Positions 11,915-63,804 of a stretch of 64,000 nt of DNA are shown in pieces; the stretch's first letter is position 1; every line of letters begins with the position of its first letter. Source of the DNA: Candidatus Iainarchaeum sp. (GTDB taxonomy: Archaea > B1Sed10-29 > WALL01 > JAGHAM01); NCBI GenBank assembly GCA_021161465.1, contig JAGHAM010000023.1, positions 8,895 through 72,894 of the forward strand. The letters run 5' to 3'. Both the position numbers and the translations under genes were made by a program. The notes beneath the pieces are model-generated. The model was not told where the DNA came from and ran no database searches. It saw only the letters and a list, made by a program, of their open reading frames with translations.

Positions 11915-14200
11915 ATGGCTAGTGGTAAGGTTAAAGTTGTAACCAAGGGCGGAAAGCGCTACCTGACTATTGATTGCAGCGGCTCGCCTTACGGGCCAAG
12001 TATTGCTGATTATCCCCAGAGAATGGCCCAGGTCATTGAGGCTCTCACTGTAAACGACGTTGATGGAATCGTCCTAGCTGATGTTTACGAGCGCGTCTAT
12101 GACGAGAGGCAAACGCGCATGTTGAAGGAAATCGCGCGACTGGTTGTGAAGTTCAAGAAAGCTGGTGTCTGGGCACCTTCGATGCTTGGTGGGAATGCCT
12201 GCTCCAGGTTCATATCTAAAAGAAAGGGCCTTATGGTTGATATTGCAAGCAATCTGCTGCGCACTGACCCGATAAGGGCTTACATAAAGTGCCTGCAAGC
12301 CATAGATATGGAAAAAGCAAAACTTGAGATAATCCAGCCACCTTACAAGAAGTGCACCCAGAAGTACATGGAGACTCTTGAATTCGTCAGGGCCAACCTT
12401 GAAGCCACCGAGCTGATACAAAAGCTCAGAAATTATATAAAGAAGCTCAAAAGCATACCGCCAGGAAGAGGGTTTTACAGAAGCATACTCGAAGCACAGC
12501 TGAAGCCATCTTTCATAGGCTCAAGGCTTATATTTGACCTGCCGGAGGAGATAGAGCTCCTGGACCAGTATGCAGTAGGGGACACCAAAGTCAGCATCTA
12601 CAAGCACCCCGAGAGGGTGGAGGCTTTATACATACTGGACCCGCCCGAATACTCACTAACCCCTGAACAATATTTCCTTATGTCCAAAACCAAGGAGATA
12701 GTCAGTGGGTATCACCCAGAAGGCCTGGAATTCACAGACCTTGCAACCAACAAAGGCTACTTCAGAAAGATTTATGAAACAACTATAGCAGACCTAGCAA
12801 ATGAAAACAACATAACTGCAACCCCTGAAGAAATCGCAGAACTGGCAAGAATAGTTGTAAGATACACAATTGGCTTTGGAATGATGGGTGTTTTGCTCTC
12901 AGACGAGAAACTAACTGATGTTTACATGGATGCCCCATTAGGGTACAGACCTGTGTATGTAGTACACTCCGATCACGGGCTGTGTGAAACCAATATAATC
13001 TTCTCAGAAGAGGAAGCAGAAGGTATTATATCCCGCTTCAGGTCGATGAGTGGGAGGCCATTTGACGAAGCACACCCAATCATGGACTTCGACCTGGCTG
13101 AATACCACGCCAGAACTGCAACCATAGGGAGGCCACTTTCACCTGATGGTATTGGGTTCGCCCTGAGGATACACAAGTCTACCCCATGGACGCTCCCACA
13201 GTTCATAGACGTTAAAATGCTTACGCCAGAAGTGGCAGGGCTGCTTTCCTTCCTGATTGACTCACAAGCCTCAACACTTGTGGTCGGTAGCAGGGGCGCT
13301 GGCAAAACTTCAATGCTGATGGCCCTCATGCTGGAAATCCTGCGTTCGCAAAGAATCATAACTATAGAGGATACGTTAGAGCTGCCGGTTGACCACATGA
13401 GAAGTATAGGGTTTAAGGTATGCAGACTTAAAACAAGGTCAGCAATATCTGTTGGCCAGGTCACGGCAGAGGTCAGCCCAGAGGATGCACTCAGAACAGC
13501 ACTCCGTCTTGGTGAGTCAGTGTTGATAGTTGGCGAAGTTAGAAGTAAGGAAGCCTTAGTGCTTTACGAAGCCATGCGCGTTGGCGCGATTGGAAACGTC
13601 GTCATGGGCACCATCCACGGAGAGAACGCTTACTCTGTTTGGGATAGGGTTGTAAATGACCTTGGGGTACCAAACACATCATTCAAGGCAACAGATATGT
13701 GTGTCACATGCGCGCCCATCAGGTTCAAAGGTTCACTAAAACGGGATAGAAGGCTAATTGAGGTCACAGAGATAGGTAAAGATTGGTATGAAGACCCAAA
13801 GAAAGAAGGCGGGCTAATCGACCTGGTAACCTACGATGCTGGCACTGACACGCATAAGATACATAAGGACAACATACTTAATAACTCGCATTTCTTTAAG
13901 CGGACCGTCAAACTAAGAGGCCTTGATATGGAAGAGATATGGAACGACATAGTGTACAGAGGGAAGGTAAAGGCTACATTGGTTGATTTCAAGAACAAGT
14001 ACAACCTCCCCGAGCTGCTTGAGTCTGAAAACACAGTGGAAGCAAATGATATGTATCTGCTTATGCAGGAGAGGAGCAGGCAGGAGGTTGGCGCTGTTGA
14101 ATACGCAAAGGTCTTTGACAAGTGGAAGAAATGGGTTGGGGAAACCATGGTGAAAGGCTTGCTGGCAAGGAGGAAGAGCAGTGAGGAAGCAAAAGGATAA
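11915..14200 (+). CDS. type IV pilus/archaellum-type secretion ATPase (FlaI/TadA/VirB11 superfamily) with a long N-terminal extension
   Basis: Walker A VVGSRGAGKTSMLMAL, Asp box IITIEDTLEL, Walker B/His box GEVRSKEALVLYEAMRVGAIGNVVMGTIHGEN. At 761 aa it is roughly 200 aa longer than typical FlaI. A TATAAATA box sits about 25 nt upstream. Confidence 0.85.
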   Translation: MASGKVKVVTKGGKRYLTIDCSGSPYGPSIADYPQRMAQVIEALTVNDVDGIVLADVYERVYDERQTRMLKEIARLVVKFKKAGVWAPSMLGGNACSRFISKRKGLMVDIASNLLRTDPIRAYIKCLQAIDMEKAKLEIIQPPYKKCTQKYMETLEFVRANLEATELIQKLRNYIKKLKSIPPGRGFYRSILEAQLKPSFIGSRLIFDLPEEIELLDQYAVGDTKVSIYKHPERVEALYILDPPEYSLTPEQYFLMSKTKEIVSGYHPEGLEFTDLATNKGYFRKIYETTIADLANENNITATPEEIAELARIVVRYTIGFGMMGVLLSDEKLTDVYMDAPLGYRPVYVVHSDHGLCETNIIFSEEEAEGIISRFRSMSGRPFDEAHPIMDFDLAEYHARTATIGRPLSPDGIGFALRIHKSTPWTLPQFIDVKMLTPEVAGLLSFLIDSQASTLVVGSRGAGKTSMLMALMLEILRSQRIITIEDTLELPVDHMRSIGFKVCRLKTRSAISVGQVTAEVSPEDALRTALRLGESVLIVGEVRSKEALVLYEAMRVGAIGNVVMGTIHGENAYSVWDRVVNDLGVPNTSFKATDMCVTCAPIRFKGSLKRDRRLIEVTEIGKDWYEDPKKEGGLIDLVTYDAGTDTHKIHKDNILNNSHFFKRTVKLRGLDMEEIWNDIVYRGKVKATLVDFKNKYNLPELLESENTVEANDMYLLMQERSRQEVGAVEYAKVFDKWKKWVGETMVKGLLARRKSSEEAKG

Positions 14201-16271
14201 GTTCCTGGATGCCATGTACAGCGATGGCGAGGAGCTGGCAGCCGAGAAACCAAAGGAACCGCTCTACATTAAGTTCTGCAAGTACTCATACAAATACTTT
14301 GGGAAGAACGCTAAAAAAGAGCTTACAGAAAAATACAAAGTTGCACTTGCATTCCTGGACTGGGACATAGAGCCACAAGAACTTAACTCCGCACCACTAT
14401 TTGCAATGACCATTGGCATCATGCTTTCTTTTTTATGGGCACTGCTAAATTATGTGTTTTACAATTTCTTTAGGCCTATAGAACTTGGCGGGGCAACCCT
14501 GATAGGATACGCGCCTGAACTTGGTTTACCACTAATGATTTACTTGCTCCCATTTGCAGGAGCGCTTGGGCTGGGATACTACATACAGGCTTACCCCTTG
14601 AAAGCTGCTGAGAAGGAAAAGATAAAGTCCCTCAGATACATACCGGAGATAGTGAACTACATTGTGATGTCCATGAAGGTCTCACCGAATCTGGAGAGAG
14701 CTATCCGGTTTGCTGCCGAGCATGGGCATGGCAGGATTGCGAAAGATTTCAGAAAGCTGCACTATGATATACAAATAGGCAAATACAAAACCGTGGAAGA
14801 AGCTTTGGACTACCTGGCGTGGAAGTGGGGAGAGTATTCAGAAGAATTCAAGCATGCTCTAATGCTCATCCGCTCATCTGTGATGGAAATTGATGAGGGC
14901 AAGAGGAATAACTTATTGGATAAGGCTGTTGAGGATACACTAGCTGGAGTCAAAGACAAGATGGATATGTACTCACGAGCTATGCACCAGCCATCGATAT
15001 ACCTCTACTATTTTGGGGTGCTCTTGCCTCTCCTGCTGGTAATAATCATCCCAGTTGGGTCAATGATGGCAGCAGACACTATGGGCTTCCTTGCAACCCC
15101 TGCTGCCATGATTTTGATGTATAACATAGCGATACCCGCAGTGTCCCTACTGCTTGCGAAATCGATACTTGAGAAAAAGCCCCCCACCCGACCAGTGCCG
15201 AAGATTCCTGATAACCTGCCTGGCTTACCAAAAAAGGGCTGGTTTAGTATAGGCAGTTACCAGCTTCCAATAGGTCTTATAAGCCTTGGTATACTGGCTT
15301 CGCTTGTCATAGCTGGCTTCGCGCTTGAGCCAGTCCTAAACCCAAAGCCGCCTGCGTACATGACTGCTGGAAGAGATGTTGAACACCTGCCAATAGTGGA
15401 GTACGCCGGAATTGCACTTGGCTTTGTCTGGGCAGCCTCATTTTACATCTGGGCAAGCAACAAGGATAAGAGGAAAGCCCAGCTGGAGCTGATTAGGATG
15501 GAAGACGAGTTCCAGGACACCCTCTACGTTTTAGCCTCCCGACTTGGTGAGGGAAAACCAATGGAAGAAGCCTTAAAGCACTCGGCTGAGTTCCTGCCAA
15601 ACTCGCCAACAACTAAGAAGATATTCATACCGACACTTCAGAACGTAACTGTGATGGGAATGACCTTAAAGATGGCCCTTTTTGACAAGGCCTATGGCTC
15701 GCTGAAATATATTCCATCGGATTTTATCAGAGGGACCATGAGAATAGTGGTTGAATCGCTGACTCTTGGTGTACAGACAGCAGCGCGTTCACTGGTTTCA
15801 CTTTCGCTCCAGTTGCAGGACTCGCAAAAGGTGGAAAGGTCATTAAGGGCCTTGCTTGAAGATATCACAAGCATGATGAGCATTATGAGCACTTTGATTG
15901 CACCTGTAGTGCTTGGGATTACCATAGCCTTGCAGAAAGTTATTTACAGCGCGCTTGGTAGTGCTGCAGGGAACAGCGCGTTAAAGAATATAAACACGGC
16001 GGGCATACCAGGCGTGGGTATGGTCTCACCAATGTTGAACATGAACATGGGGGCAAAACTCCCAGCCATAGACCAAACAATGCTCCTGGCAATAATAACA
16101 ATATACATGATTGAGATAGTCCTAGTCCTTATCTACTTCGCATCCAGCGTCACTGAGGGTGACAACAAGCTGGCTTTCAAGATAAACGCAAGCATTGCAT
16201 TGCCAATATCACTAACAATATTCTTTGCAATAGCCTTCTTCGCCACCAAACTAATTCCAGCAGGGATCTGA
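14181..16271 (+). CDS. FlaJ/TadC-like polytopic membrane platform protein of the type IV pilus system
   Basis: 696 aa. Alternating cytoplasmic domains and TM blocks. GTG start preceded by AAGGAGGAAG. The start overlaps the end of the ATPase gene by 20 nt (translational coupling). Its position directly after the ATPase is the canonical arrangement. Confidence 0.7.
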   Translation: MRKQKDKFLDAMYSDGEELAAEKPKEPLYIKFCKYSYKYFGKNAKKELTEKYKVALAFLDWDIEPQELNSAPLFAMTIGIMLSFLWALLNYVFYNFFRPIELGGATLIGYAPELGLPLMIYLLPFAGALGLGYYIQAYPLKAAEKEKIKSLRYIPEIVNYIVMSMKVSPNLERAIRFAAEHGHGRIAKDFRKLHYDIQIGKYKTVEEALDYLAWKWGEYSEEFKHALMLIRSSVMEIDEGKRNNLLDKAVEDTLAGVKDKMDMYSRAMHQPSIYLYYFGVLLPLLLVIIIPVGSMMAADTMGFLATPAAMILMYNIAIPAVSLLLAKSILEKKPPTRPVPKIPDNLPGLPKKGWFSIGSYQLPIGLISLGILASLVIAGFALEPVLNPKPPAYMTAGRDVEHLPIVEYAGIALGFVWAASFYIWASNKDKRKAQLELIRMEDEFQDTLYVLASRLGEGKPMEEALKHSAEFLPNSPTTKKIFIPTLQNVTVMGMTLKMALFDKAYGSLKYIPSDFIRGTMRIVVESLTLGVQTAARSLVSLSLQLQDSQKVERSLRALLEDITSMMSIMSTLIAPVVLGITIALQKVIYSALGSAAGNSALKNINTAGIPGVGMVSPMLNMNMGAKLPAIDQTMLLAIITIYMIEIVLVLIYFASSVTEGDNKLAFKINASIALPISLTIFFAIAFFATKLIPAGI

Positions 16272-16757
16272 ATGCAAAAGGGGCAGTACTACGCAGTGAT
16301 GAAACTACTCCAGGCTGCCGTGTTCGCTGCGGTGCTGATGCTAGTTGCTTGGGGCATAATCAGCTATATCGAAAGCTACATGGCAGGCACTGATGTCCGA
16401 AGTGTCTCCGTTGAAGTTCTTAAGAGTGCCTATGTGTCAAGGGATGCAAACCAGTCATTTACTCGAGAGGCCAAGCTTATGGGGCAAGGCTTCAGTAATG
16501 AATCCCTGAGGAATTCAGCAGGCATACCTAAAGGGACCATAATAAGAATTTTCTGTAACGAAAGCTTCTGTGAAAATCCATGCCATTACTATAGCGATAA
16601 GTCCCACTGGAACAACCATTGTGGCGACCAAGTAACACTAAAGAAAGGCGGGAAGATAAAAGTATGTGCCTCATGCAAAACATATGGAACAACAGTTAAA
16701 ACAGTTAAGTGCGGGCTCTTCCTAGATGCAGATACTTGCAACATTTACATGCCCTGA
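16272..16757 (+). CDS. pilin-like protein with class III signal peptide
   Basis: N-terminus MQKGQYYAVMKLLQAAVFAAVLMLVAWGII has a KG|Q prepilin-peptidase-type cleavage context followed by a hydrophobic helix. Cys-rich C-terminal domain. ATG directly abuts the platform gene stop. Confidence 0.55.
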   Translation: MQKGQYYAVMKLLQAAVFAAVLMLVAWGIISYIESYMAGTDVRSVSVEVLKSAYVSRDANQSFTREAKLMGQGFSNESLRNSAGIPKGTIIRIFCNESFCENPCHYYSDKSHWNNHCGDQVTLKKGGKIKVCASCKTYGTTVKTVKCGLFLDADTCNIYMP

Positions 16758-16782
16758 TTGACTCGCGACTAGAACAGTAAAC

Positions 16783-16791
16783 TATTTAAAT
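16783..16791 (+). promoter_or_regulatory. TATA-box-like element (TATTTAAAT) upstream of pilin gene 16823
   Basis: About 31 nt upstream of the ATG. The same box is duplicated at 17498..17506 upstream of the paralogous pilin 17540. Confidence 0.4.
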
Positions 16792-16822
16792 ACCAATAAT
16801 GTAGTTTTGAGTAGGTGATTTC

Positions 16823-17296
16823 ATGCTAAATGAGAGAGGTCAAGCGTTTGATGCGTTTAAGCTGCTGATAGCTGCAGTGGTTGCTGGTGCAATACTTGTT
16901 ATAATATTAGGTATGCTTCAGGGTTTCATAATACCTGTTGGACAGCCTATGAGTGTTATGACTCAGGGCATATCAACTACCTCAAAAGCCGCTGGCTCTG
17001 GAACAGTTTCTCCACAAGCAGTTAAGTTTGTAAAGGGAGATATACTTTCAACTGATGGCGTAGCCGACCAGGCTGGCGTAAACAAAAATAGAGTCTGCTT
17101 TTGCAATAGCACAACAATAGATGGTGCTAAAGCCTGCCCAGCAGGATATGTATTTGATAATGGTACATACTTCACAGTCCTTGGAAAATGTGGAGGTACC
17201 ACTGGTATGAGCATAGAAGCATTAGAGGACATTAATGGAAAGATAAGGGTATACAACAAGGAAGGGACTTTTTACATAGGTTTCAAACCAAGTTAG
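16823..17296 (+). CDS. type IV pilin-like protein (class III signal peptide), paralog A1
   Basis: MLNERGQAFDAFKLLIAAVVAGAILVIILGML has an RG|Q cleavage motif plus a hydrophobic stretch. GGTGA SD-like motif upstream, and an upstream TATTTAAAT box. Confidence 0.7.
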   Translation: MLNERGQAFDAFKLLIAAVVAGAILVIILGMLQGFIIPVGQPMSVMTQGISTTSKAAGSGTVSPQAVKFVKGDILSTDGVADQAGVNKNRVCFCNSTTIDGAKACPAGYVFDNGTYFTVLGKCGGTTGMSIEALEDINGKIRVYNKEGTFYIGFKPS

Positions 17297-17313
17297 GTTT
17301 AGAAGGTAAATAG

Positions 17314-17442
17314 ATGAACACCAAGGGAGATGTGAACTGGACACCAATATACCTGCTGATACTGGCAGCAATAGCCTTAATCCTGATAGTAAGCGTTATA
17401 AAGCCAATGTTCCAAGCGGCTGCTGGAAACATAAGCTTCTAA
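17314..17442 (+). CDS. 42-aa pilin-like mini-ORF (MNTKGDVNWTPIYLLILAAIALILIVSVIKPMFQAAAGNISF)
   Basis: Not in the supplied ORF track (under 60 aa). Has a KG motif followed by a single hydrophobic helix. Sits between two pilin genes. Confidence 0.3.
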   Translation: MNTKGDVNWTPIYLLILAAIALILIVSVIKPMFQAAAGNISF

Positions 17443-17539
17443 GGTACATGGAGCGTTGCAACCTGCGCCCAACTGCAAGTGGTTGGTAAAAGTAAAGTAT
17501 TTAAATGAAAACATTGTTATTTGCTCTAGAGGAGTTAGT

Positions 17540-17998
17540 ATGTTAAACGAGAGAGGTCAGGCGTTTGATGCGTTTAAGCTACTGATAGCTGCAGTGGTTG
17601 CAGCAGCTATACTTGCTGTTATTTATGCTATAATCATCCAAGTCCAGCCACCATTTCAACAAGCCGCACAAACAATAACAAAAGGTATCTCATCTGAGAA
17701 TATTGCTGGTGCTGGCTCATATTATGGAGATGGAAAAGTTAAGTTCAATAAAGGTAGGGTGCTATCTTCAAGTGGTCTCGCTGGAGCAGTCGGTATAAAT
17801 GAGAAGAATGTTTGTTTTTGCACTTCCACCAATCCGCCAGAGTGCCCAAGTGACTCTATATTCACGGAACCTGATTTTACAGTAACAGGAACATGTGGAA
17901 ATGGACAAACACTAAAAGCAAACGAAGAAGTATATGGTAATGTGTGGATATACAGAAACAATGACAACAGGTACATGATTGGTTTCCAGAAAAGTTGA
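17540..17998 (+). CDS. type IV pilin-like protein (class III signal peptide), paralog A2
   Basis: The ATG at 17540 gives MLNERGQAFDAFKLLIAAVVAAAIL..., whose first about 25 residues (and about 90% of their nucleotides) match the 16823 gene. GGAG SD upstream and a TATTTAAAT box about 33 nt upstream. The ORF-track start at 17456 is probably too long. Confidence 0.7.
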   Translation: MLNERGQAFDAFKLLIAAVVAAAILAVIYAIIIQVQPPFQQAAQTITKGISSENIAGAGSYYGDGKVKFNKGRVLSSSGLAGAVGINEKNVCFCTSTNPPECPSDSIFTEPDFTVTGTCGNGQTLKANEEVYGNVWIYRNNDNRYMIGFQKS

Positions 17999-18037
17999 TG
18001 ATAAACATTTATAGCCTAGTTGTTCGTTATTTTGAGT

Positions 18038-18592
18038 ATGGTGAGCTTTAAGTCTGGGCAAAGAGGTCAAGAAAGCGCGCCTTTTAATTTAATCATAGCG
18101 GGAGTTATGATTACTTTCACGATAGTAGTGCTAGGCCACTTATTGGTGAATTCAAATACTACCTTCTGCGTGGAAAAGATGCAAAGCAACGCGCAAAGCT
18201 TGGCTAGGGAGATTGAGAAAACAGCCCAGTACTCAAGGAACAACACAGAGCTCACAGTTAACCTCAATTTCCCATCATGTGGTGACATACAAATAGACAA
18301 CTTCACAATCAAAGACTCTGACCCCATACACTGCGTTAAGTACTGCCATGCCAGTAGCTGCATGCTTATGACCATAAATGGTTACACCGGTGGGAGTGCT
18401 ACCACAGTAACAGAGCCCATTTGTATAAAGGTTCCGACCAACACCACCATAAATACCACAGGATGCCAGTCGTTATTTGGAGCAGGATACAAAGATATAC
18501 CAGATAGAGCATTCAAGCCCAAAGTCTACCAGCTGTCATTGATAAAGACTATAAGCGGTGAAACCACTATACACATCTGTGACGTTGGATAG
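18038..18592 (+). CDS. pilin-like protein (class III signal peptide), paralog B1
   Basis: MVSFKSGQRGQESAPFNLIIAGVMITFTIVVL has an RG|Q motif. The C-terminal domain shares the CVKYCHASSCMLMTINGYTGG...EPICIKVP motif with the 18716 gene. Confidence 0.6.
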   Translation: MVSFKSGQRGQESAPFNLIIAGVMITFTIVVLGHLLVNSNTTFCVEKMQSNAQSLAREIEKTAQYSRNNTELTVNLNFPSCGDIQIDNFTIKDSDPIHCVKYCHASSCMLMTINGYTGGSATTVTEPICIKVPTNTTINTTGCQSLFGAGYKDIPDRAFKPKVYQLSLIKTISGETTIHICDVG

Positions 18593-18715
18593 AGATTTAA
18601 CGACATACTGCTTTCTCACGTGACTAAACTTGGCCTCACCGGGTGACCCGAACAGGTTTGGATATGACTTCAAAATTTCAAAACTTTTATAACCTAGTTC
18701 CCCGTTATTTCTGTG

Positions 18716-19267
18716 ATGAAAGCCAGGGCTGCTGGGACAAAAGGCCAAGAGGAAGCACCGTTTGCACTGTTCCTTGCAGTGGCGATGCTAGCACTGCTGC
18801 TGCCAATAGCCGCTGAGCTTTACAAGAACGCCAGCACTGCCGTCTGTGAAGAGCAGATACAAAGCAGTATGGAAACTCTGGCAAGAGATATTGAGATAGG
18901 AACAGCACTCCCAGGAAACAACACAGTCTTCAATGTTGATTTCGGATTTTTCTCGTGTGGCAACTGGATTATCAGCAACTTCACTCTTAAATCACCAGGC
19001 TCCGAAGAATGTGTCCGCAGCTGTCAAACTGCCAATTGTATGATGGTCAGAGGCAATGGATACGTTGGAGAGGAACCAACTGTGATTGGCGAACCAGTTT
19101 GTGTAAGGCTTCCTTTAGACGTAAATCTTAGAACCAGTGGTTGTACTGGTTTTGGTTACACTGGGCTACCCTCCAATACATTCAACACCACCAAATATAC
19201 GCTGGTCTTGGTGAAAAAAGAACACGGTGGCCTGACTGACTTACATCTCTGCAATTACAATAGCTAG
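18716..19267 (+). CDS. pilin-like protein (class III signal peptide), paralog B2
   Basis: MKARAAGTKGQEEAPFALFLAVAMLALLL has a KG|Q motif. The C-terminus (CVRSCQTANCMMVRGNGYVGE...EPVCVRLP) is paralogous to the 18038 gene. The upstream region (TTTTATAACCTAGTTCCCCGTTATTT) is also duplicated from the 18038 upstream. Confidence 0.6.
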   Translation: MKARAAGTKGQEEAPFALFLAVAMLALLLPIAAELYKNASTAVCEEQIQSSMETLARDIEIGTALPGNNTVFNVDFGFFSCGNWIISNFTLKSPGSEECVRSCQTANCMMVRGNGYVGEEPTVIGEPVCVRLPLDVNLRTSGCTGFGYTGLPSNTFNTTKYTLVLVKKEHGGLTDLHLCNYNS

Positions 19268-19275
19268 GTGGATAT

Positions 19276-19950
19276 ATGCAACTAAAAAAGAAACGCCTTG
19301 GGAATAAAGGCTTGGGTATGTGGGTGATGTCCAAGACAGTACTTTTCATCTTTCTTTTGCTGCTTGTAGCGGTACTAAGTGGCTTCTTAAACATTTACCA
19401 GAAAAAAGTTATTGAAGACAGCGCGCGCAGTGTGATAATGCTCTGGGCTGAGTCCGCCAACTCCGTCGCGCAATTCCCTTCAGGAAGCGCTATCTGGCCA
19501 CTGCAACAACAGGTTATTATAAAGAGCGCCGGAAGAAAAGTCTCGGTAGCCAAGGATTACACAACTGGTATAGTTGCTCTGGATAGCCCAGATGGAAAGC
19601 GATTGGTGTTTATGCTTGCATGGGGGGACCATAATGAAACTAAAATTGAGGATATTCCTGAATACGCGACTGCTGTTTCCACCGGCCTGCCGCTGGACAT
19701 AACTAATGTATATTTCTTCAATGGTTCAACCACCCCTGGAGATCCACCAACATATCTGCAATATGCTGGGAATCCTAAAGAGGAAATTATAGTTAGACCA
19801 TCAATAGGTGGCACAAGGGATGCATATATAGTATTTTATAGGAATCAAACAACATTCTGCATTGGAACCATAAAGCAAACTGAAACTGACTTAAAAACAG
19901 CTGTTGGGAACATAGCAACATGCTGTAATGCTCCATCATCATGTCCATGA
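19276..19950 (+). CDS. pilin-like protein with charged N-region and hydrophobic helix
   Basis: MQLKKKRLGNKGLGMWVMSKTVLFIFLLLLVAVLSGF. AGGTGG SD-like motif upstream. Alternative start at ATG 19318. Confidence 0.5.
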   Translation: MQLKKKRLGNKGLGMWVMSKTVLFIFLLLLVAVLSGFLNIYQKKVIEDSARSVIMLWAESANSVAQFPSGSAIWPLQQQVIIKSAGRKVSVAKDYTTGIVALDSPDGKRLVFMLAWGDHNETKIEDIPEYATAVSTGLPLDITNVYFFNGSTTPGDPPTYLQYAGNPKEEIIVRPSIGGTRDAYIVFYRNQTTFCIGTIKQTETDLKTAVGNIATCCNAPSSCP

Positions 19951-19959
19951 GGTAGAGAT

Positions 19960-20475
19960 ATGAGAAAAGGATATATTGGTCCATTGGGGGATGATTTCCC
20001 TGCACTGCTACCAATAGCACTAGGGCTGCTGATGTTCTTCAGTGCCATATCGCTTGCTTATGCAATCCATGACGCAAAAAGTACAACTGTAAATCTTATG
20101 AGAGCTAATGTAATGATTTCAAGGTCAATCAGAGAAGATGTGCATTTCACAAGAGAATACTGGACTGGTGAAGCCTGCTCAAAAATGAATAATACTGCAG
20201 TGAATTATGGTGTTAAGGTTGCAATGAGGATAGTGATGAGTAATTATACCTATTACAGTACCACAGGTTCCAGTTCAATAGAGATTCCATCAAACAAAAC
20301 CGAAGATTCCGTCATGCTTGTCAACTCGAGCGGAGGAAGTAGGGCTGTCTGCCCGTTAGGTGCCCAGTGGGAGGATTACGTACCAGCAAGTGGCTTAGCT
20401 ATGAGCTACCCTGTAGTTGTTGATTCACAAGGACAGATATTACCAGCAACGTTGGTGGTGGTAACATGGCAGTAA
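19960..20475 (+). CDS. pilin-like protein (class III-like signal)
   Basis: MRKGYIGPLGDDFPALLPIALGLLMFFSAISLAYAI. GAGGT SD upstream. Confidence 0.45.
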   Translation: MRKGYIGPLGDDFPALLPIALGLLMFFSAISLAYAIHDAKSTTVNLMRANVMISRSIREDVHFTREYWTGEACSKMNNTAVNYGVKVAMRIVMSNYTYYSTTGSSSIEIPSNKTEDSVMLVNSSGGSRAVCPLGAQWEDYVPASGLAMSYPVVVDSQGQILPATLVVVTWQ

Positions 20476-21029
20476 AGGCACAGGCCGTAATCATTGATGC
20501 GTTCCTCCTGTTCATACTTTGCTCTTTTGCTGCAACTTTCCTTCTCTGGGCATCAAGTGTCTATGGGAACAAATCGCTAAGGGCCTACACTTACTTATAT
20601 GAGGGAGAATATGAAACAAGCCTGATAAATGTTCTCTCTGAGATGAAATACAACGTTAGCGATGTGCCAAGACATTGGATAGATGAAGTTGGGTATTATA
20701 TGAATGGAGAATTTGATGAAAGCAGCGATAGATACACCAACATGACAAAGTATTGGGATATCATATGCCTTCAGGCCCCTGTCCCATTGCAGCTTGAAGT
20801 CGTTACCAATACCAAAAATCCAAGTCATTCGAAAATGATTTTCAATTGTTCCCTTGACCCAACCAGGCTAGATAGGGAAAGAATAAACGAAAGTGTACAG
20901 GATTACATGACAAGAGATTGCAACCCTCCTGGAATTTGTAGACCTCCGCCGCCTTATTACTCCTCTGGGTCTGAAACTCGGTTATGCGGCGACCTAGTTT
21001 GCAAGATGGAGGCAAAGATTTATTATTAA
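20466..21029 (+). CDS. pilin-like protein (class III-like signal)
   Basis: MAVKAQAVIIDAFLLFILCSFAATFLLWASSVYG. GGTGGTGG SD upstream. Overlaps the previous gene by 10 nt. Confidence 0.45.
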   Translation: MAVKAQAVIIDAFLLFILCSFAATFLLWASSVYGNKSLRAYTYLYEGEYETSLINVLSEMKYNVSDVPRHWIDEVGYYMNGEFDESSDRYTNMTKYWDIICLQAPVPLQLEVVTNTKNPSHSKMIFNCSLDPTRLDRERINESVQDYMTRDCNPPGICRPPPPYYSSGSETRLCGDLVCKMEAKIYY

Positions 21030-21049
21030 GTTAAGTGTGAGAGAATACA

Positions 21050-21490
21050 ATGCTAATAGAGTCCTATTTAACTGCACTGCTCCTTTGTACTTCCTATGGA
21101 AAGCCAGCTTGTATGGGTGTCCTATCATTCATAACCTCCCTAATTGTTTTCGCGTTTGTAGCGCTAACCACACTATTTTTCAGGAGAAAAAACAAAGAAG
21201 CAAACTGGTTTGCTAAACTTATGTTAACGATAGTCTATTTCACTATAGTATGGATAGCCATATGCATATATTATGGAACAAGCCCCATGGAAGGTTTATC
21301 AATACCATTGAAATATGGATTTGGTGTGTTCTTTTTATTCGTCCTGCCGTTCTCATGGGTGTATAAAAAGCTGATGAACAAGTATCCTATGCTCCCATGG
21401 CATTTCGTCCAGTACCTATGTTGCCTGGTTGCCAGCCTAATCTTTTGGGCTGCCGTAATTTTCTACTTTGGTATCTTCTCACTCGTATGA
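21050..21490 (+). CDS. hypothetical 4-TM membrane protein within the pilus cluster
   Basis: 146 aa with four hydrophobic helices. No D..GGD-type prepilin peptidase motif recognised. Confidence 0.4.
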   Translation: MLIESYLTALLLCTSYGKPACMGVLSFITSLIVFAFVALTTLFFRRKNKEANWFAKLMLTIVYFTIVWIAICIYYGTSPMEGLSIPLKYGFGVFFLFVLPFSWVYKKLMNKYPMLPWHFVQYLCCLVASLIFWAAVIFYFGIFSLV

Positions 21491-21523
21491 AAGCTTAAAA
21501 AGGATTAGCGAGTAAGGTGATTT

Positions 21524-23590
21524 ATGCACAGAGGATTCAGTGTTTTCACACCAATGGTTGGAGTTATAGTAATCACTATAACTATCCTTCTGGTCGCTGC
21601 AATTCTTCAAGATGAAAGAGTGGTTACTGCTGGCACTCTGCAAACATATCAGAACATACGAATCGCCAATATAATGAGGGATGTACAGGGTAGAGTGTCG
21701 GAAAGTATAAGGATAAGTATGTTTGAGAATTGGGTTGAACAAACTACAGCCGAGATAAAAACAGACAACTGTTTTAATGACTCCCTGGCAAATAATTATG
21801 ACAGTGGTCTGAAGGAATGCAAAGCTAGTCTACTTAATGAAACTAAGAATGACATCAAAACCATTATGAAGGATGCCCTAAAAGGAAGTGTCATATCAGA
21901 TACTATCGATAGGATGAGCTATGATTATAAGGACGCCAAGATAACAGGCATATCCATCTCAGATATCAACAATGTAGTAGGGGAAACCAAATTCGTAGAT
22001 TGTGAATCCCCTGAGGACTGCAATGATGGTAGAATCAAAGTCACTATAAATTTTTCAAAGTTAGAAGGCAAACCAGTTGCAACCATAGAAACCAACACAA
22101 GCACAATAAATGTCTACATGCCACCAGGGGAGTCAACATTCATAACAGACGATCCAGTAGGCATCTATGCTATAAAAATAGGGGAATTCTTTGGAAATTT
22201 CACGCTAATGGACAAAACATGGCATGGTGCGGGCAACAGCATAACTAGGACCATAGGACCAAGTGATAGATGCGATTATAATGGAGAGGACACACCATAT
22301 GGTGCAATACCTCTAGATAAAAATAATGAGTGTAGAGGTTACGGGAACGGCAGCCAGTGGTACCACTACAAATATGTGTTCCAAAGAAGAGAACCGCAGA
22401 ACTTAACAGAAGATGGGGGTAGTGGTTATGTCACCACTGGATGGAAGAGTGGGTTTAACTTCTCTGATAACGGGAACCGACCAATTAGGTTGAGTGAGAA
22501 AATCTATGAGCTTGTAAAGGGGTGGTTGGACACACATATCACAATTAGTATGAGTGGTTGGGAAAACTGCCTTGACCTGTTCAGCAAAGCACACCTTAGA
22601 GAGGTCAGCTACAATATATGTGGTGATTTTGATTGTCTTGAGAACTATTTCATCTCAGGTTATATAAGAGGGAAGAAGCTTGCCTACAATGAGAGTGGAT
22701 ACGGTTATCCGGGGTACGCAGCAAACCTCAAGCTAAACCAGTTAGTATACAGAAAGGGAGACCCAACTGCCCTTGCTAGTGAACAATATGCGTTGCCTGG
22801 CGGGCATGCTCATAAAGATACACCTAGCGAGTACATCAACATCAGAGGTAAGAAAAACGCCTTAATCGATGACCCTAGTTACCAAAGCATAATCTCGCAA
22901 GAACCTGACAACACAATCTTAGAAAATACCACCAACTATTTTGATGAAAGATTCTTTAAGGATAACTCATATTCTGATGGGCCACTCGAAGACTTGGTTG
23001 GGAAAATAAAAGAATCTTCCAGAGATTATGCTTCCTCTATGGGGTTCTATTCAGAGGAACCAAGATATAATTTAACCGTTGAAAGCTGGCAATATTATGT
23101 CCACAAGGATATCTCTGGTGGTGATAACTGGTATTGCGGTGAGTTTGTAGGATGGTATATACCTAGCTTTGCTGGAGGTTCTTATACTGCGACTGAAGCA
23201 CTTGATAAGTTCGGTGATCACGCAATGTTCTTCTCATTGCCCATGAATTTCACCTGCAATACATACACCTTAGTGGCGGTTAAGGAGGATTATAAGTTAC
23301 TCAGGAACACAGAGGCACATCCAGATGATATAAACAAAACAGTTTTCCATGCAGTCTTAGAACGGGTGAAAACAGATTATTCAGAAGGCACGAGTGAGGT
23401 GGCACTATGGAAAGGTAGTGGTATCACCGAATTCGATAGAAGGTGGCTCAGACCAACAATAAAAGACATCTCAGATATGCAATCAGATATGCCCTCAGAA
23501 AAACTAAGCATAAGGCACTGCATATACTCATATAAGGAAGGGACTGGAGGGAACGAAGAGTGTTACTGGATAGGGCAGAAACCAATATGA
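21524..23590 (+). CDS. large pilin-like/pilus-associated protein (688 aa) with class III-like signal
   Basis: MHRGFSVFTPMVGVIVITITILLVAAIL has an RG|F cleavage context. AGGTGA SD upstream. Large extracellular domain with many N-x-S/T sequons. Candidate tip adhesin or minor pilin. Confidence 0.5.
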   Translation: MHRGFSVFTPMVGVIVITITILLVAAILQDERVVTAGTLQTYQNIRIANIMRDVQGRVSESIRISMFENWVEQTTAEIKTDNCFNDSLANNYDSGLKECKASLLNETKNDIKTIMKDALKGSVISDTIDRMSYDYKDAKITGISISDINNVVGETKFVDCESPEDCNDGRIKVTINFSKLEGKPVATIETNTSTINVYMPPGESTFITDDPVGIYAIKIGEFFGNFTLMDKTWHGAGNSITRTIGPSDRCDYNGEDTPYGAIPLDKNNECRGYGNGSQWYHYKYVFQRREPQNLTEDGGSGYVTTGWKSGFNFSDNGNRPIRLSEKIYELVKGWLDTHITISMSGWENCLDLFSKAHLREVSYNICGDFDCLENYFISGYIRGKKLAYNESGYGYPGYAANLKLNQLVYRKGDPTALASEQYALPGGHAHKDTPSEYINIRGKKNALIDDPSYQSIISQEPDNTILENTTNYFDERFFKDNSYSDGPLEDLVGKIKESSRDYASSMGFYSEEPRYNLTVESWQYYVHKDISGGDNWYCGEFVGWYIPSFAGGSYTATEALDKFGDHAMFFSLPMNFTCNTYTLVAVKEDYKLLRNTEAHPDDINKTVFHAVLERVKTDYSEGTSEVALWKGSGITEFDRRWLRPTIKDISDMQSDMPSEKLSIRHCIYSYKEGTGGNEECYWIGQKPI

Positions 23591-23635: not shown

Positions 23636-26600
23636 TTGCAAATGGGAATTGACGAGATATACGCTAAAATTGAAGATAAATATTACGCTTTTTTGGATTA
23701 CCTACAAAAGAGAGGCATCCCCGTGTATTCAGTCATCGATCCGATAGAGCACGCTGGAATACCCTCTCTGCCGCTTCTGGTTGGCTTGCTCATACTAATC
23801 CTTGGGCTAGCGTATTATACAACGGCGGGCCCAGTGGGTGAGGATGTTACGCTGACTATAACCTCAAATGGTGTTGCTGTCACTGACGCCCAAGTAAAGG
23901 CACTGCTTGATGGAACTACAATCAAATCGGTGGTAAGCAGGAATGGGGAAGCCATCCTAAGTGGATTGCCACCAAACAAAAATATCACTATAACAATTGA
24001 TAAACCTGGTTGCGCGTTGTGGTCCAAGACTATAACACCATCGGAAATTAATGACCTTAACCCCCAGCTGCAGTGTGAAAGTGCCATATACTCCTGCCTG
24101 GACATATCAAGCGACATGGTGACGGCATATGTACAGGATAAAGACAGCATCCCCCCAACTTCATGCGAAGTTAGAGTACACCCACGTAGCAACCCATCCA
24201 CATCTATAGCTGTTGGTTGGAAAGTTGAAAACGGGGTGCTTCACATAGAAGACCCCTCACAAGACAACTGCCCAAGTAAGGATGATTATGTCGCTATACT
24301 GTGTGACAATGGAGATTACAACAATACCATATCTGGACTGCTATCTGACATAAAACTTAAGGGAAGCATAACACTCACAACAACTCAACCACCAGAAAAG
24401 CCAAATGCAACCGAACTTCCCAAGATACATATACATGTACAATCAGACACTGGACACCCTCTTGATGGTATAATAGTAAAAGCTGTCGATGCACAATGCA
24501 ATGACAGAGCATCAGACTTTGCAAACGCCGTGCTCCAGGCAGCCACCGGACCAAATGGTGATGCCACATTGCAGATACCTAATGGGCAAGATTTTTATCT
24601 AGCTGCATCCGACAAGAGTGGAGTTTACAATGAGTATTGCAACTCTGACGATAAGTACACGTCAAGCCTTGATATGGAGGCCAAAAATATTACAATAGTT
24701 ATGAGAGTGGGCTCAGGAACAAAAATAGAAGTTAGAGAATCTGGAACGCAAGAGCCCATCCCGGGCGCGCTCGTCACAGTGAAAGACGAGACCGGCAGAA
24801 GTGTGGGAACACCAATACTTACTGATTCCTCTGGAGAAGCAAACTTTGTCCTCTATACTGGCAAGAGCTACACCGTTGAAGTGAGGCACAGAGCTTATGA
24901 GCTCATAAAAGACACAGTAACTGGGGGAGAAGACGCCTACATATACATGGACCCCGTTGACATAACCCAAACAGGAAATCTTGAATTGACAACGGTAAAG
25001 GCGTACGGCACAAAGGACAGGCTCGGTGGGGTAACAGTCCAGCTGGTGCGGAATGATACAGTTTATGCCGAGATTAAGACAGACCGCTCGGGTTATTACC
25101 TATTAACCAATGTAGTTGCTGGCGACTACCAGACTAAAGTTCTGCCACCGGGGGGAGTCAACTATCAGAGCGGCCCAGACGTGACAATAGCGCCACAAAA
25201 TACCACCAAGACAACCATAGAAGTCAAACCAGAGAAGGTAACCCTAAGTGTCATAACCTATGTTGAAATGGGCGGTAAGAAACTCAGAAAGCAGAACGTA
25301 AAGGTTGAAATGTGGGACGCACGTTACGATGAAAAAATCGAAGAAAAGACATCAGGCATAGAGAGAAAAGTGGATTTCACTGTTGATAAATGCTCTGAGG
25401 TTTACTTCGTGCTTAGCTACGCTGAAAATGAAGGTCCCTATGCTGGCAAAAAGTATGGGCCCCTGACCAGTGACCCTGAAACTTACTGTGGGTCAAGAGA
25501 GATAAAAGATTTAGTGTTGAAAGAAAAGCCAGACCAGACTACAGTTAGTTTAACAGTAACTACACCCCAGGGTGATGAAGTAGACCAGCTGATTCCTGGT
25601 AACCATTACAATGCATTGCTTGAGGTAGCACTCCCAGAATACACAAAGAAGAACACCTACAATCAGGTTGATGTTGAGATGTTCGTTGGTGAGACTGGAA
25701 GCCTGCTCAACACAGAAAGGACTCCTGTGATTATAGGCACCGTCGGCCTGCAGGACCTAGCAACACAGGACCCTTATATATCAGACGTCTTCAAATCTGA
25801 TGACTACAGCTTCGGCCAGCAGCCAAGCAGAGAGGAAACAGGACCTAGCAAGTACATTAAGATAACTATAACCAAATACACTCCGGGTACATATGTAGCC
25901 AGAATCCCCTTGTATGTAAGGAAGTTAGCTGATTACGAAACCACTAAGATAAGTTACAAGGCAACGTGGGTCCCCCCAAAAGGGAACAGTATATGCTCTG
26001 AGGAAGGATGCCTCTGGACACGCAATAGTTACCAGATAGTTCCAGAAGGCACACCACAGCTTTACGGCCTTGACTCCGGAGCGTTTTACGCTTACAAAGC
26101 ATGGCTCACTGCAAGCAAAAATGGCTCACCAATAACAATAGACACACCTATAACACAAGACGCTTACTTCTACCTGCACATCAATGCAACTGCAAGAAGC
26201 GACATAACAAGTTGGGGAGTTAAATTTGAAACCATACCAGAGATAGCAGAGCCCATTGCCTATGAAGGAACGATATACAGGGCTAGTGGAGCAACAACAG
26301 AGATAACATCAACAGGATTAACTGGTTATACGATAACAAATGACAAGGATATCTATGCACTACACAGCGATGACCAGCTTTTGTTGACTGTCACTATGAA
26401 AGCAGTTTCGCCTGGCAGATGCTCTCTGGTACCATTCAATGACCTTGCACACTCGCTAAGCTTTAAGGTATCAGAGGTTCCACTACTCAAAAAAGAAACC
26501 CTAATTGCTGGTGTAACCGCAACCCTACAGGCCAAAAGCTTGTTTGAGAAAGGGCAGGATTACGCTAAGGACCTCTGGGCTAGTTATGACGTAGAGAATG

Positions 26601-29600
26601 AAACCCTGCCAACCAACTACAAGAAATTCAAGCTGATATTCCAATTCGGCAACACAGCGGGAGAGACTATAAATGCAAAACTTGTCCTGGATGCAAAGGA
26701 CAAGAGCCTATCATTTACCAATGTAACAGTAGATGGTGAATCCAACCCGGGAACAGGCACATACATACAAACTACTGAATTCGAAGTGCCATCAAGTGGT
26801 GCTGAAGTTGTGATAGAAGGAGAGGGAACAACCCAATCAACAAGCAACATGGACATATACTTCTGGGAACAAGACACACCAAGGCCAGACACACCATGGG
26901 CAACCATAAGCTATGGTAAAATTGATTACTCTGCTAGCATTAAAGCGTACGAGAAAGGAGCTGTATTAAAAGGCGTCTCCGAGAATGCAGACGAGGTCAG
27001 AGTCTGGGTTTACAAGAGCGTTGATGATTCTGTATCCAGTATCGGAGGAGGTATTATCGAAGGGGACCATGTCAAGATAGCTTACGACAACAACTCAGTG
27101 ATTGAATGGGCGTCTTTAGAGCCATCTGGACCCTACTTTAAGTACGTAGTCCCTGAAGATAAACCAATCAGGGGAAAACTAACAGCAATCATCACGAGCT
27201 CGAAATTTGGCGAGATTGATGAAACACTAAGCTCGTCTTACGTCAGCTTTACACCGAAAAGCACAAACATAAAAGATTTCCTGAACATGAACTTGGTCTC
27301 TAACGAGGAGAAGACAAAAGATATAATAGTAGCCAGCCACTACAACGAGCCTCTTGATATGACCATAGGAAACATCCAAAAAGACGGATGGAAATTCTCA
27401 CTCGAAACAACTATATACTCACTAAAGCCGGGAACAGCAACAGTGTTCATGAAGAGAGAAACCCAGAAAGGGAGTGGCAAGGTAACCATACCTGCCAAAG
27501 GGAAGGCAGTAATTAAAGTTACCGCAAGCCCTGTTGACGTGAAGTGCAGGTACAACGAAACGGCCTTGCTCCAACTTGATGTGGAGAACGTCAGGAAGCC
27601 TTATGTGTATTCCTTTGCCTTAAACTGTACCAATGGCACTTCCGGCGTAAGTTATACTACTGCAGTACCGACAGACCATATAGTCAGGCTAGACATAGAC
27701 CCATCAACTGTCACGCGCTTTGATTGCTTTAACAATAGTGCTGAGAGTGGATTGGACACAGCGTACCTTTGCGACGCTGAGCAGTTTGGGGTGTCTCTGC
27801 TTGATGCAGCCTGGGCACTTTACACAGACGATTACTCTGTTGAACACTCTTATTTCTATTCACTTGGAAAAGATGAGTTAGGTCAGGAGGGGCTATCACA
27901 AATTCTCAGTAGGTATGGGGACAAATTTGAGATAAGCCATGTATACAACAGTGAGGACTCTGCCAAAGCTACAAAAACTACAGACATAGTCCTAGATGGA
28001 AAAGCTGGTTGTGGCATCAATAAGGTAGTCCTAACTAAGATAAACCATGATGAAGACATCAGGATAACTATAACAACTAACAGCAGTGTTCCATGGTGTG
28101 GTAGAGCAGCCCACGCCTATTTGATAGGCCTGCTAAACTACGACCAGAACTTAAGGCCTACCCTCGGAAAATACTACTCGTTCGATACAAGCATGGAGGG
28201 TGAAAATGTAATAGATGCAATACAGTACGCTAAGAAACAGGGCAACTCCATATCGAACACAATGTTATTCAGCTATGGTTCTGCCGGTGAAAGTTATTCT
28301 GCCCAAACCATAGTCAATGCAAGAGCTGGTGGGAGACCGCAGAGTTACATAAAATACAAAGACTGCGAAATCATGTCCGGCACTGATTGCCCAATATTTG
28401 CGATTAACTTCTTTACAACCCTGAAAGAACCAATAATAGGTTACTTTGATATAGACAACAAGGACGACATACATGTTGGTTTGGTATACGACAGGAGCGA
28501 GATTACCACTGAAGGTGCGGGGAACCAGCTGGACACCTACCGGGCATTATTCATAACCCGGCTCTTGGATTATGCTGTTTCTGGGAATATGGGCCAGGGC
28601 ATATGGATTGGCTCCAACAACAGCCAGATGATTTACATCCCAACGAAAGACACAAGCCAAAATATTGTTGACTTAAGCCCTGTTACGCAAAGAGTTTTGG
28701 TTTATGGTAAGAATTACTATGATGTGGAAAATGAGGAAATTACAGGTAACAGGAGCGTCCACGTGCACATAGACATAGATGACGAACCGCGCTATTGTGT
28801 CGTTGGCAACCTCAAACCAGATGGAACTATAACTGATTCGCAGGAAGAAACACCCGTATTCCAACCAAACAGCAAAGACTGGCCATATGGTATTGATGTA
28901 TTTGACTGGACATTACTACCTGGCAATGGAAGAAAACGGGTTGTAGCTTACTGTATGGATAAGAATGGTGTCACTTCCAGGATAAGTGTGGGTGAGATTC
29001 TACTTGACACTACAGGTATGCTAGTGTTCAGGGGCGAGCAATATCCAAATACACTCAGCATGTACAAACCAATGATAACTAAAGACCTGTTTTATCACTT
29101 TATCGTGATGAATAAATATGGAGAAACTACCAAATGCTGGATGGAATACAAGGATAAAGAGTATATGACAGAAGGGGAGATTAGCTTAGGTACTGCACCG
29201 GAGGATAAAAACATATGCAACAACGGTCAGAACGACAACAGTCCAATTCCTGGAGTCTCAGATAACTGGCAGATAGATGATGGCTGCTGCTATCCTGTAG
29301 GTGGAAATTCAGGAAATGTTGAGGGCAGCGGAACAGAAAAAACATACTTCTTCAATATGCAGGAATTCACCTGCAACAGCCCGATAGTTGAAACGGAAAA
29401 CGAGGAGATTCCTGTAGAGATATGGTGCATGAACAGCTTAGGGCAAAAGAAAAAATTAATTGATGTTAACTTATACAGGCAAAGCACCGACGCACCAATG
29501 TTTGTTCTACCGGGGGACTTTACATTCTCTGTAAATGGAACCTACGAAAACGGTGTTATGACCAGCAACTATGGAGGTCAAGGGTTATACTTTGACAGGA

Positions 29601-52753: not shown

Positions 52754-52757
52754 TTAC

Positions 52758-54370: not shown

Positions 54371-54423
54371 GGCTTATTATTTGAAAGAAAGAATATAAAT
54401 AACAAACCAGAAAATAATCCCAT

Positions 54424-54690: not shown

Positions 54691-54695
54691 TTAGT

Positions 54696-54877: not shown

Positions 54878-54985
54878 CACTATAGGAGTTACAACTCTGC
54901 TACCATTACATGGGGGGATAATTGACATATACTATATCAGGGGTAACAGGAAATCTTAAATTCACTGCAAAAGATAAAAACTTCA

Positions 54986-56419: not shown

Positions 56420-56427
56420 GTGACCGA

Positions 56428-56985: not shown

Positions 56986-56986
56986 G

Positions 56987-63801: not shown

Positions 63802-63804
63802 CCT

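Follow-up and report, generated by a model that had tools for sequence, protein, structure and literature searches.

Two tandem pairs of pilin-like genes in a DPANN archaeon: evidence for old duplication of self-contained units and for a short 5' gene-conversion tract

We analyzed a 64-kb window (the whole 64,000-nt stretch of contig JAGHAM010000023.1 considered here) from an uncultured DPANN archaeon of the Iainarchaeia/Diapherotrites, in which two pairs of pilin-like genes, hereafter A1/A2 and B1/B2, sit within a long same-strand (+) gene array. A reading of the sequence alone (the sequence-only reading) had taken these genes for pilin genes recently duplicated in tandem together with their promoters. 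The four genes are indeed pilin-like, form two paralogous pairs and each carry a promoter-like element of their own, but the duplications are not recent, since the synonymous sites of the mature domains are saturated and A2 is equidistant from A1 and from three orthologs in other genomes. As an overall reading, to which we assign a probability of about 0.72, the locus holds old tandem copies of self-contained pilin units, the 5' ends of A1 and A2 having in addition undergone gene conversion.

The genes in question, together with the small open reading frame (ORF) that follows A1, are listed below (coordinates are those of the window; arrows mark predicted cleavage sites).

16823 to 17296, + strand: A1, family-A pilin-like protein of 157 amino acids, the copy nearest to the orthologs, followed by the mini-ORF.
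17314 to 17442, + strand: mini-ORF, a 42-amino-acid helix-only pilin-like micro-ORF (KG↓DVNWTPIYLLILAAIA...), kept after the A gene in related loci.
17540 to 17998, + strand: A2, divergent family-A paralog of 152 amino acids, on a long branch and with no sampled ortholog beyond this species.
18038 to 18592, + strand: B1, family-B Cys-rich pilin-like protein of 184 amino acids, with an N-terminal helix diverged from the rest of its clade.
18716 to 19267, + strand: B2, family-B pilin-like protein of 183 amino acids, whose N-terminus is still of the ancestral type and which has stayed linked to the genes that follow it.

A1 and A2 correspond to J7L23_03250 and J7L23_03255 in the NCBI annotation of the metagenome-assembled genome (MAG), which is labeled 'Candidatus Diapherotrites archaeon'. 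Three other assemblies hold the same arrangement with at most 1 nt of difference over the up to 3 kb compared; it is therefore not an assembly artefact.

The pilin-like nature of the four products is indicated by their N-termini, by structural models and by the locus in which they are encoded. Class III signal peptides have a prepilin-peptidase site located before the hydrophobic domain, with G, A or S at position -1 and a charged residue at -2 (PMC4371748). All four proteins possess such a site: ..ER-G↓QAFDAFKLLIAAVVA.. in A1 and A2, ..QR-G↓QESAPFNLIIAGV.. in B1 and ..TK-G↓QEEAPFALFLAVA.. in B2. In each case, the charged residue and the glycine are followed by Q and a hydrophobic stretch (RGQA, RGQE, KGQE), and the resulting [KR]G↓Q processing motif is invariant in both families. 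The AlphaFold2 models of A1 (predicted local distance difference test score, pLDDT, 89.5; helix 5-33 followed by an alpha/beta domain) and B1 (pLDDT 92.8; a 50-residue helix, 14-64, packed on a beta-sheet) are confident helix-plus-sheet models and suggest a lollipop shape. Finally, as is the case for archaeal type IV pilins, the genes are associated with an assembly ATPase: a FlaI/TadA-like gene heads the locus, and this synteny is found in the related locus L004 and in others.

No pilin family hidden Markov model (HMM) of Pfam or NCBIfam (archaeal pilin, archaellin, N_methyl) matched A1, A2, B1 or B2 at E <= 0.1, and families A and B thus constitute uncurated families of their own. Their database relatives (52 for family A and 99 representative clusters for family B, the latter recovered by an exhaustive profile search, a word-indexed homolog search with B1 having returned B1 alone) nearly all come from Iainarchaeia/Diapherotrites-type MAGs and are all unnamed proteins. 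A search of PDB sequences with the A profile gave no match, while the B profile gave weak alignments to bacterial type IV pilins, at their alpha-1 helix (Geopilin, E 0.016; PilE1, E 0.5). The A and B profiles are related to each other over their N-terminal 71 columns (hhalign 93%, E 3.5e-7). B1 and B2 also share a cysteine motif, as had been noticed, albeit with a slightly different spacing from that first written down, namely C-x3-C-x4-C-M-x4-N-G-Y-x-G-x7-E-P-x-C-x3-P. Taken together, all four genes are predicted to encode type IV pilin-like subunits of a pilus-like filament specific to Iainarchaeia; we infer prepilin cleavage, filament assembly, transcription start sites and functional role from sequence. 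Family A would provide the major subunit, as suggested by its own consensus promoter and Shine-Dalgarno sequence, its small size and its invariant core helix, and family B would head a C-D-E-F array resembling a minor-pilin or tip set.

Full-length identity amounts to 43% between A1 and A2 (BLASTP E 2e-28), and B1 and B2 are 36% identical (E 2e-40). The pairs were compared with about 45 independent related loci from genomes and metagenomes, across which the order ATPase, platform, pilin0, A, mini-ORF, B, C, D, E is kept. Two A and two B genes occur in this genome only among the sampled loci; in the nearest relatives, L004 and L038, with A proteins at 62-64% identity to A1, both the A and the B gene are single. 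The mature domains of A1 and A2 use the same codon at 39% of their shared residues, which corresponds to the saturation baseline and equals the fraction found between A1 and an ortholog in another genome. Because of this saturation, the ratio of nonsynonymous to synonymous substitution rates (dN/dS) is uninformative on diversifying selection. In the comparison with orthologs, A2 was 36% identical to A1, 36% to P0002, 36% to P0003 and 35% to P0004, and 22-28% identical to more distant members. A neighbor-joining tree built on the mature domain places A2 as sister (bootstrap 84) to a clade made of A1 and the three orthologs (bootstrap 98). On the family-B side, the mature domain of B1 groups with B2, P0055 and P0056 (bootstrap 85), and B1, B2 and the B gene of L004 are mutually 34-37% identical. 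The two outer copies, A1 and B2, keep ancestral features, in that they are nearer to the orthologs and have retained their neighbors (the mini-ORF for A1, C-D-E for B2); divergence is seen in the inner copies, A2 and B1. These data would place the duplications at about the base of the subclade, with later loss elsewhere, unless the extra copies came from an unsampled relative.

The latter possibility deserves consideration in a specific form, in which A2-B1 is a foreign A-B cassette from an unsampled related Iainarchaeon that entered the locus through homologous recombination in the invariant 5' part of the A gene, the similar 5' ends of A1 and A2 (see below) being the scar of this event. It would explain why the two divergent copies adjoin each other in A-then-B order without a mini-ORF, why A2 falls outside the clade that A1 forms with its orthologs and why the N-terminal helix of B1 is unlike that of the rest of the clade, and a crossover point would be consistent with how sharply the 5' tract is bounded. 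However, the mature domain of B1 is closest to that of B2 (37%) and nested in the four-member clade mentioned above, its promoter has the clade-specific TTTATA(G/A)CCTAGTT of B2, L004 and L038, and A2 resembles no other lineage (22-28%) as closely as it does this subclade (35-36%). Furthermore, neither mobile-element genes nor flanking repeats were seen in the window. We consider this scenario improbable, although it fares best among the alternatives to old tandem duplication.

We then turn to the N-terminal identity of A1 and A2. A shared 25-residue signal peptide had been proposed; the identical stretch is real but spans residues 1-21 (MLNERGQAFDAFKLLIAAVVA), and it is not a signal peptide in the strict sense: by the class III rule, the cleaved part would comprise MLNERG only, and the rest would be a helix retained in the protein. 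Prepilin peptidase is thus predicted to cut after MLNERG, leaving the hydrophobic helix in the mature pilin. Across the family, GQAFDAFKLLIAAV.A..IL is invariant in 46 of 46 members from many genomes. This 46-sequence alignment shows no variation at 17 of the 25 N-terminal positions of A1 (G6, Q7, A8, F9, D10, A11, F12, K13, L14, L15, I16, A17, A18, V19, A21, I24 and L25), whereas mature domains across genomes are 22-60% identical. Since the residues are invariant family-wide, the amino-acid identity of A1 and A2 in this region reflects purifying selection on the filament-core helix and does not require the gene conversion that the sequence-only reading had raised as one possible way of maintaining it.

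Gene conversion is nevertheless likely, because of an anomaly at the synonymous sites of the following segments.

16823 to 16914, + strand: 5' tract of A1 probably homogenized with A2, 92 nt, 84% identity (repeat D1), strongest at about 16823-16887.
17540 to 17631, + strand: 5' tract of A2 probably homogenized with A1, the counterpart, about 17540-17604/17631.

Over 16 invariant codons, A1 and A2 show 3 synonymous differences, to be compared with 6-16 in between-genome pairs (11 for A1 versus L004). Among identical residues, the same codon is used at 17/23 N-terminal positions versus 17/44 positions in the mature domain (Fisher p = 0.0096). The codon usage of the genome predicts 7.9 same codons in the N-terminal part, where 17 are observed (P = 7e-5); by contrast, the 17 same codons found in the remainder of the genes are close to the 15.7 expected, i.e. 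this part is saturated. A permutation scan corrected for the location of the tract gave p = 0.017-0.08. In addition, the variable leader, MLNER, is the same in A1 and A2, while the nearest orthologs have MFNEK and MFNDK. A short 5' gene-conversion tract, covering about the first 65-90 nt, that recently homogenized the synonymous sites of A1 and A2 is thus moderately well supported by these sequence comparisons. No signal of this type is present in pair B, where same codons amount to 30% in the N-terminal part and 42% in the mature domain, and where the N-terminal helix of B1 has diverged (30-36% identity to all relatives).

Selection is known to act on the 5' ends of coding sequences, and the low synonymous divergence of the A1/A2 5' ends could in principle reflect a constraint at the nucleotide level (translation initiation, mRNA structure or the codon choice of a highly expressed gene) that affects both genes of the genome in the same way, instead of conversion, the more so as the tract is short and its location-corrected significance modest. 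However, the orthologs encode the same 16 residues with largely different codons (6-16 differences; 30% same codons for A1 versus L004). Neither does the genome's own codon usage account for the excess (7.9 versus 17), and the leader, which is variable, is also identical in the two copies. This explanation therefore appears unlikely, and we retain 5' conversion in pair A.

Each of the four genes has its own promoter-like element, and a repeat search of the window returned three blocks independently, namely D1 (5' coding region of the A genes), D3 (A promoters) and D4 (B promoters).

16776 to 16791, + strand: A1 promoter core, AGTAAA resembling a B recognition element (BRE) plus TATA box TATTTAAAT (repeat D3).
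16814 to 16818, + strand: Shine-Dalgarno-like GGTGA before A1; GGTGA/GAGGT lies at the same place in A orthologs.
17491 to 17506, + strand: A2 promoter core, AGTAAA plus TATTTAAAT (found by the repeat search).
17529 to 17534, + strand: Shine-Dalgarno-like GAGGAG before A2.
18003 to 18032, + strand: B1 promoter, AAACATTTATAGCCTAGTT-GTT-CGTTATTT, with TTTATA at 18008-18013 (repeat D4).
18681 to 18710, + strand: B2 promoter, AAACTTTTATAACCTAGTT-CCC-CGTTATTT, with TTTATA at 18686-18691 (repeat D4).

In pair A, the TATTTAAAT boxes at 16783-16791 and 17498-17506 lie 31 and 33 nt upstream of the respective ATG, in agreement with the 31-33 nt initially reported, and the exact 16-mer AGTAAAnTATTTAAAT occurs twice in the whole window, in the A1 and A2 promoters. 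Upstream of all A orthologs there is a TATA box (TTTAAA or TTTATATA), 31-40 nt from the ATG, together with a Shine-Dalgarno sequence of the form GGTGA/GAGGT, and the AAAGTATTTAAATGAAA element of A2 almost matches the promoter of a distant ortholog in L011. Between TATA box and ATG, pair A shows little conservation, which indicates that the conversion tract does not reach upstream of the coding sequence. In pair B, the common region TTTATA(G/A)CCTAGTT-n3-CGTTATTT extends over 18008-18032 (B1) and 18686-18710 (B2); it had been said to abut the start codon, but 5 nt separate the two. In both genes, exactly 24 nt lie between the TTTATA hexamer and the ATG, a geometry that supports the proposed leaderless arrangement. 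In all B orthologs, the TATA box ends 22-26 nt before the ATG and is followed by a pyrimidine-rich spacer devoid of a Shine-Dalgarno sequence (no GGTGA/GAGG). The TTTATAACCTAGTT-n3-CGTAT element, at exactly the 24-nt spacing, is common to B1, B2 and the single B genes of L004 and L038, and so is, with the same spacing, the wider form AAC(A/T)TTTATA(G/A)CCTAGTT-n3-CGT(T)AT.

Archaeal TATA boxes lie about 26-27 nt upstream of the transcription start, and leaderless units lack a Shine-Dalgarno sequence. From the position of the TATA boxes, leaderless transcripts are therefore predicted for the B genes, in which the hexamer ends 24 nt before the ATG and no Shine-Dalgarno sequence is found, whereas the predicted leader of the A genes is about 10 nt long. 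Two palindromes, TCACGTGA (18617-18624) and TCACC-G-GGTGA (18639-18649), were also observed in the 123-nt B1-B2 spacer, about 65-100 nt before the B2 start; they could form a regulator binding site and were not seen upstream of the B genes of L004 or L038.

The upstream regions of the paralogs are, as the sequence-only reading implied, more similar than those of unrelated genes: when the 50-nt regions upstream of window genes were compared in 1128 pairs, A1/A2 ranked first with 31/50 matches (mean 17.8, standard deviation 2.5) and B1/B2 seventh with 26/50. Other genes in the window use the same two promoter styles. This similarity does not mark a recent joint duplication of genes and promoters: the promoter layouts are ancestral, as single-copy orthologs in other genomes have them too, and the resemblance between paralogs reflects conserved functional elements inherited and retained by each copy. 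Duplication of pilin genes along with their own promoters is an ordinary pattern, is expected and opens no new question.

These results bear on the scenario initially put forward, that of a recent in situ tandem duplication followed by rapid diversifying selection on the exposed domains, in which the identical N-termini and promoters would be leftovers of common ancestry. The restriction of the doublets to this genome, the top rank of the A1/A2 upstream pair and the 84-92% nucleotide identity of the 5' coding tract all speak for it. On the other hand, the synonymous saturation of the mature domains cannot be produced by selection at the protein level, A2 is no nearer to A1 than to orthologs of other genomes, and, upstream of the genes, the similarity of pair A is poor between the TATA box and the ATG while the promoter cores are equally conserved in single-copy orthologs. 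We consequently regard a recent duplication as very unlikely. Even less probable, to the point of being barely credible, is that A2 and B1 are decaying, unexpressed duplicates: both lie on long branches, B1 has lost the clade-typical N-terminus and A2 lacks a downstream mini-ORF, but they are intact full-length ORFs that keep every family-invariant residue (cysteines included), have consensus promoter elements at the ancestral spacing and differ by at most 1 nt across the three other assemblies, whereas unselected copies of this age would show stops or frameshifts.

The sequence of events that we favor, i.e. old tandem duplication followed by 5' conversion in pair A, would be as follows. Before duplication, the A unit (BRE/TATA about 31-40 nt upstream, short Shine-Dalgarno leader) and the B unit (TATA about 24 nt before the ATG, leaderless) would each have been a self-contained transcription unit, which is why each copy would carry its own promoter. 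The duplications would be at least as old as the separation from those lineages whose A pilins, in the mature domain, now show 55-60% identity to A1; of the resulting copies, the outer ones, A1 and B2, would have kept the ancestral sequence and the coupling to their neighbors, while the inner ones, A2 and B1, diverged. The QAFDAFKLLIAAVVA... helix, retained after cleavage, would form the hydrophobic core that packs the subunits into the filament, which would account for its invariance throughout the family and would keep both A1 and A2 compatible with one assembly machine. Conversion would then have homogenized A1 and A2 over about the first 65-90 nt. The outcome would be two alternative or mixable variants of the major subunit and two B variants with different exposed surfaces, as might suit varied adhesion or host attachment.

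A bolder and distinctly tentative proposal is that conversion of the 5' ends is ongoing and keeps the core segments of the two major pilins interchangeable while their exposed domains drift, in a filament that would be specific to Iainarchaeia and previously uncharacterized. If so, one machine would build filaments from either or both surface variants, a simple means of varying the pilus surface for attachment, and the locus would also hold a conserved helix-only mini-pilin of 36 residues and six further pilin-like families without a curated model. The organism is a DPANN archaeon for which attachment to other cells is probably a necessity. Surface filaments rank among the prime candidates for DPANN cell contact, and annotations list the pilins of these archaea as no more than hypothetical proteins. 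We define here two pilin families of Iainarchaeia that lack a curated model, together with their conserved promoters and a mini-protein conserved in the same group, and provide a worked example of pilin paralogs whose identical N-termini would stem from a constraint on the core helix combined with a short conversion tract, and not from recent duplication.

The mini-ORF (MNTKG↓DVNWTPIYLLILAAIALILIVSVIKPMFQAAAGNISF), which is preceded by a Shine-Dalgarno-like sequence, looks like a pilin cut down to its N-terminal helix and would be co-transcribed with A1, which it follows; no counterpart is present 3' of A2. An intact ATG-initiated ORF with the consensus [KR]GD[VM]NWTPIYLLILAAIA.ILLISVIKPMFQ lies directly after the single A gene in at least nine related loci. 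In L004 and L038, a reading frame opened by an ATG covers its C-terminal end only.

The other genes of the array are the following.

11915 to 14200, + strand: pilus assembly ATPase (FlaI/TadA/VirB11-like), which opens the locus, with a leaderless-type TATA box upstream.
14181 to 16271, + strand: 696-amino-acid polytopic membrane protein, overlapping the ATPase stop codon, at the position of a PilC/TadC/FlaJ platform.
16272 to 16757, + strand: pilin-like 'pilin0' (MQKG↓QYYAVMKLLQAAV...), a distant family-A paralog whose N-terminal motif and position are kept in related loci.
19276 to 19950, + strand: C, pilin-like (KG↓LGMW), downstream of B2.
19960 to 20475, + strand: D, pilin-like (KG↓YIGP), downstream of C.
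20466 to 21029, + strand: E, pilin-like (KA↓QAVIIDA), downstream of D.
21050 to 21490, + strand: 146-amino-acid membrane protein, between E and F.
21524 to 23590, + strand: F, pilin-like, 688 amino acids (RG↓FSVF), at the end of the 19276-23590 gene run.

The ATPase matches Pfam T2SSE (6.4e-21), and its top NCBIfam models are FlaI (2.7e-40) and TadA (5e-40), both under the equivalog cut-offs. The 696-amino-acid protein is, by its position, a candidate PilC/TadC/FlaJ platform protein; it had no match in Pfam, NCBIfam or PDB sequences, T2SSF/TadC/FlaJ models included, and is about twice the usual size of TadC. Its ortholog in L004, of 699 amino acids, lies at the same position. The genes at 19276-23590 have Shine-Dalgarno-like sequences and no TATA box was seen upstream of them; they are probably co-transcribed with B2, downstream of which the C-D-E-F order recurs in L004 and other loci. 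The products of the small genes of the array start with a short charged leader followed by [KR][GA] and a hydrophobic stretch. Pilin-type N-termini were observed in at least 10 consecutive genes (16272-23590), in an order kept across Iainarchaeia, and none of them fits a curated family. No prepilin peptidase (Peptidase_A24-type) was found among the scanned ORFs of the 64-kb window, and the repeat search of the window returned no direct repeats flanking the duplicated units that would point to how they were duplicated.

Directly 3' of the pilin array, on the + strand, lie genes for two giant proteins (2677 amino acids, 23636-31669; 2219 amino acids, 31745-38404) that bear CarboxypepD_reg/prealbumin-like (SpaA, SdrD_B) domains and are possibly adhesins or surface-layer proteins tied to the pilus locus. 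Outside the main array, a 132-amino-acid ORF (39150-39548, + strand) has a pilin-like N-terminus (..NKKG↓FLPLIAGIPTALIVLIVVILLLVL..). The pilin-like proteins contain several N-x-S/T sequons, and the exposed surfaces of the A and B variants are probably N-glycosylated; a cluster of glycosyltransferase genes (GT2, PMT_2/Alg9-like, LPG_synthase_TM) located 30 kb downstream, at 51404-59388, may be relevant to glycosylation of these sequon-rich pilins. A tmRNA called by ARAGORN at 63464-63803 (+ strand) is almost certainly false, as the host is an archaeon and no Rfam RNA family was found in the window; the call overlaps the end of a DUF2666 gene.

Among known systems, the closest analogue is the PilA1-PilA6 set of Haloferax volcanii, in which each paralog can be the major pilin and adhesion differs between them (Esquivel et al. 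2013, reviewed in PMC4371748). There as here, a set of paralogs combines a nearly fully conserved hydrophobic N-terminal domain with divergent C-terminal domains. The two sets differ in several respects: no sequence or Pfam relationship was detected between them; there are two copies here and not six; the copies are in tandem inside the biogenesis locus, whereas pilA genes are neither co-located nor co-regulated with pilB/pilC; and the cleavage motif is [KR]G↓Q here and [DR]A↓VS there. The processing motif is of the KGQ type, with Gln at +1, found in the Methanococcus Epd pilins (KGQV, KGQI and KGQL; Table 1 of PMC4371748). Methanococcus maripaludis EpdA-E, processed by the dedicated peptidase EppA, also comprise multiple pilin-like genes in one locus with ATPase and platform genes; beyond the motif, no sequence similarity is detectable, and the mature domains are larger and Cys-rich here. 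Epd pilins carry the DUF361 motif QxSxExxxL, which is absent from the pilins described here.

DPANN loci of the same kind, in which genes for a FlaI-like ATPase and a TadC-like protein accompany an array of unrecognizable small proteins whose N-termini are of pilin type, appear in two comparative genomics studies (Makarova, Koonin & Albers 2016, PMC4858521; Makarova et al. 2019, PMC6393860). The latter reads them as diverged type IV pilus systems with unrecognizable pilins, and the former notes a tendency of major pilin genes to duplicate in tandem. Families A and B, their promoters, the mini-ORF and the 5' homogenization are not described in the parts of these papers that deal with such loci. 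The resemblance to bacterial type IVa pilins and Geobacter PilA-N is limited to the weak alignment of the B profile with their alpha-1 helix (E 0.016-0.5, below significance); unlike these, the present pilins have no N_methyl Pfam match, their acidic residue is not at +5 from the predicted site and the host is an archaeon. Finally, in Neisseria, silent pilS copies lacking promoters and 5' ends serve in conversions that diversify the variable region of pilE. The likeness to pilE/pilS lies in a non-reciprocal recombination between pilin paralogs that share a conserved 5'/N-terminal region. By contrast, no silent cassette of that type was found here, all four genes having starts, full N-termini and TATA boxes at the ancestral spacing, and the tract corresponds to the conserved 5' end of two complete copies with promoters, so that conversion would result in homogenization and not in diversification.

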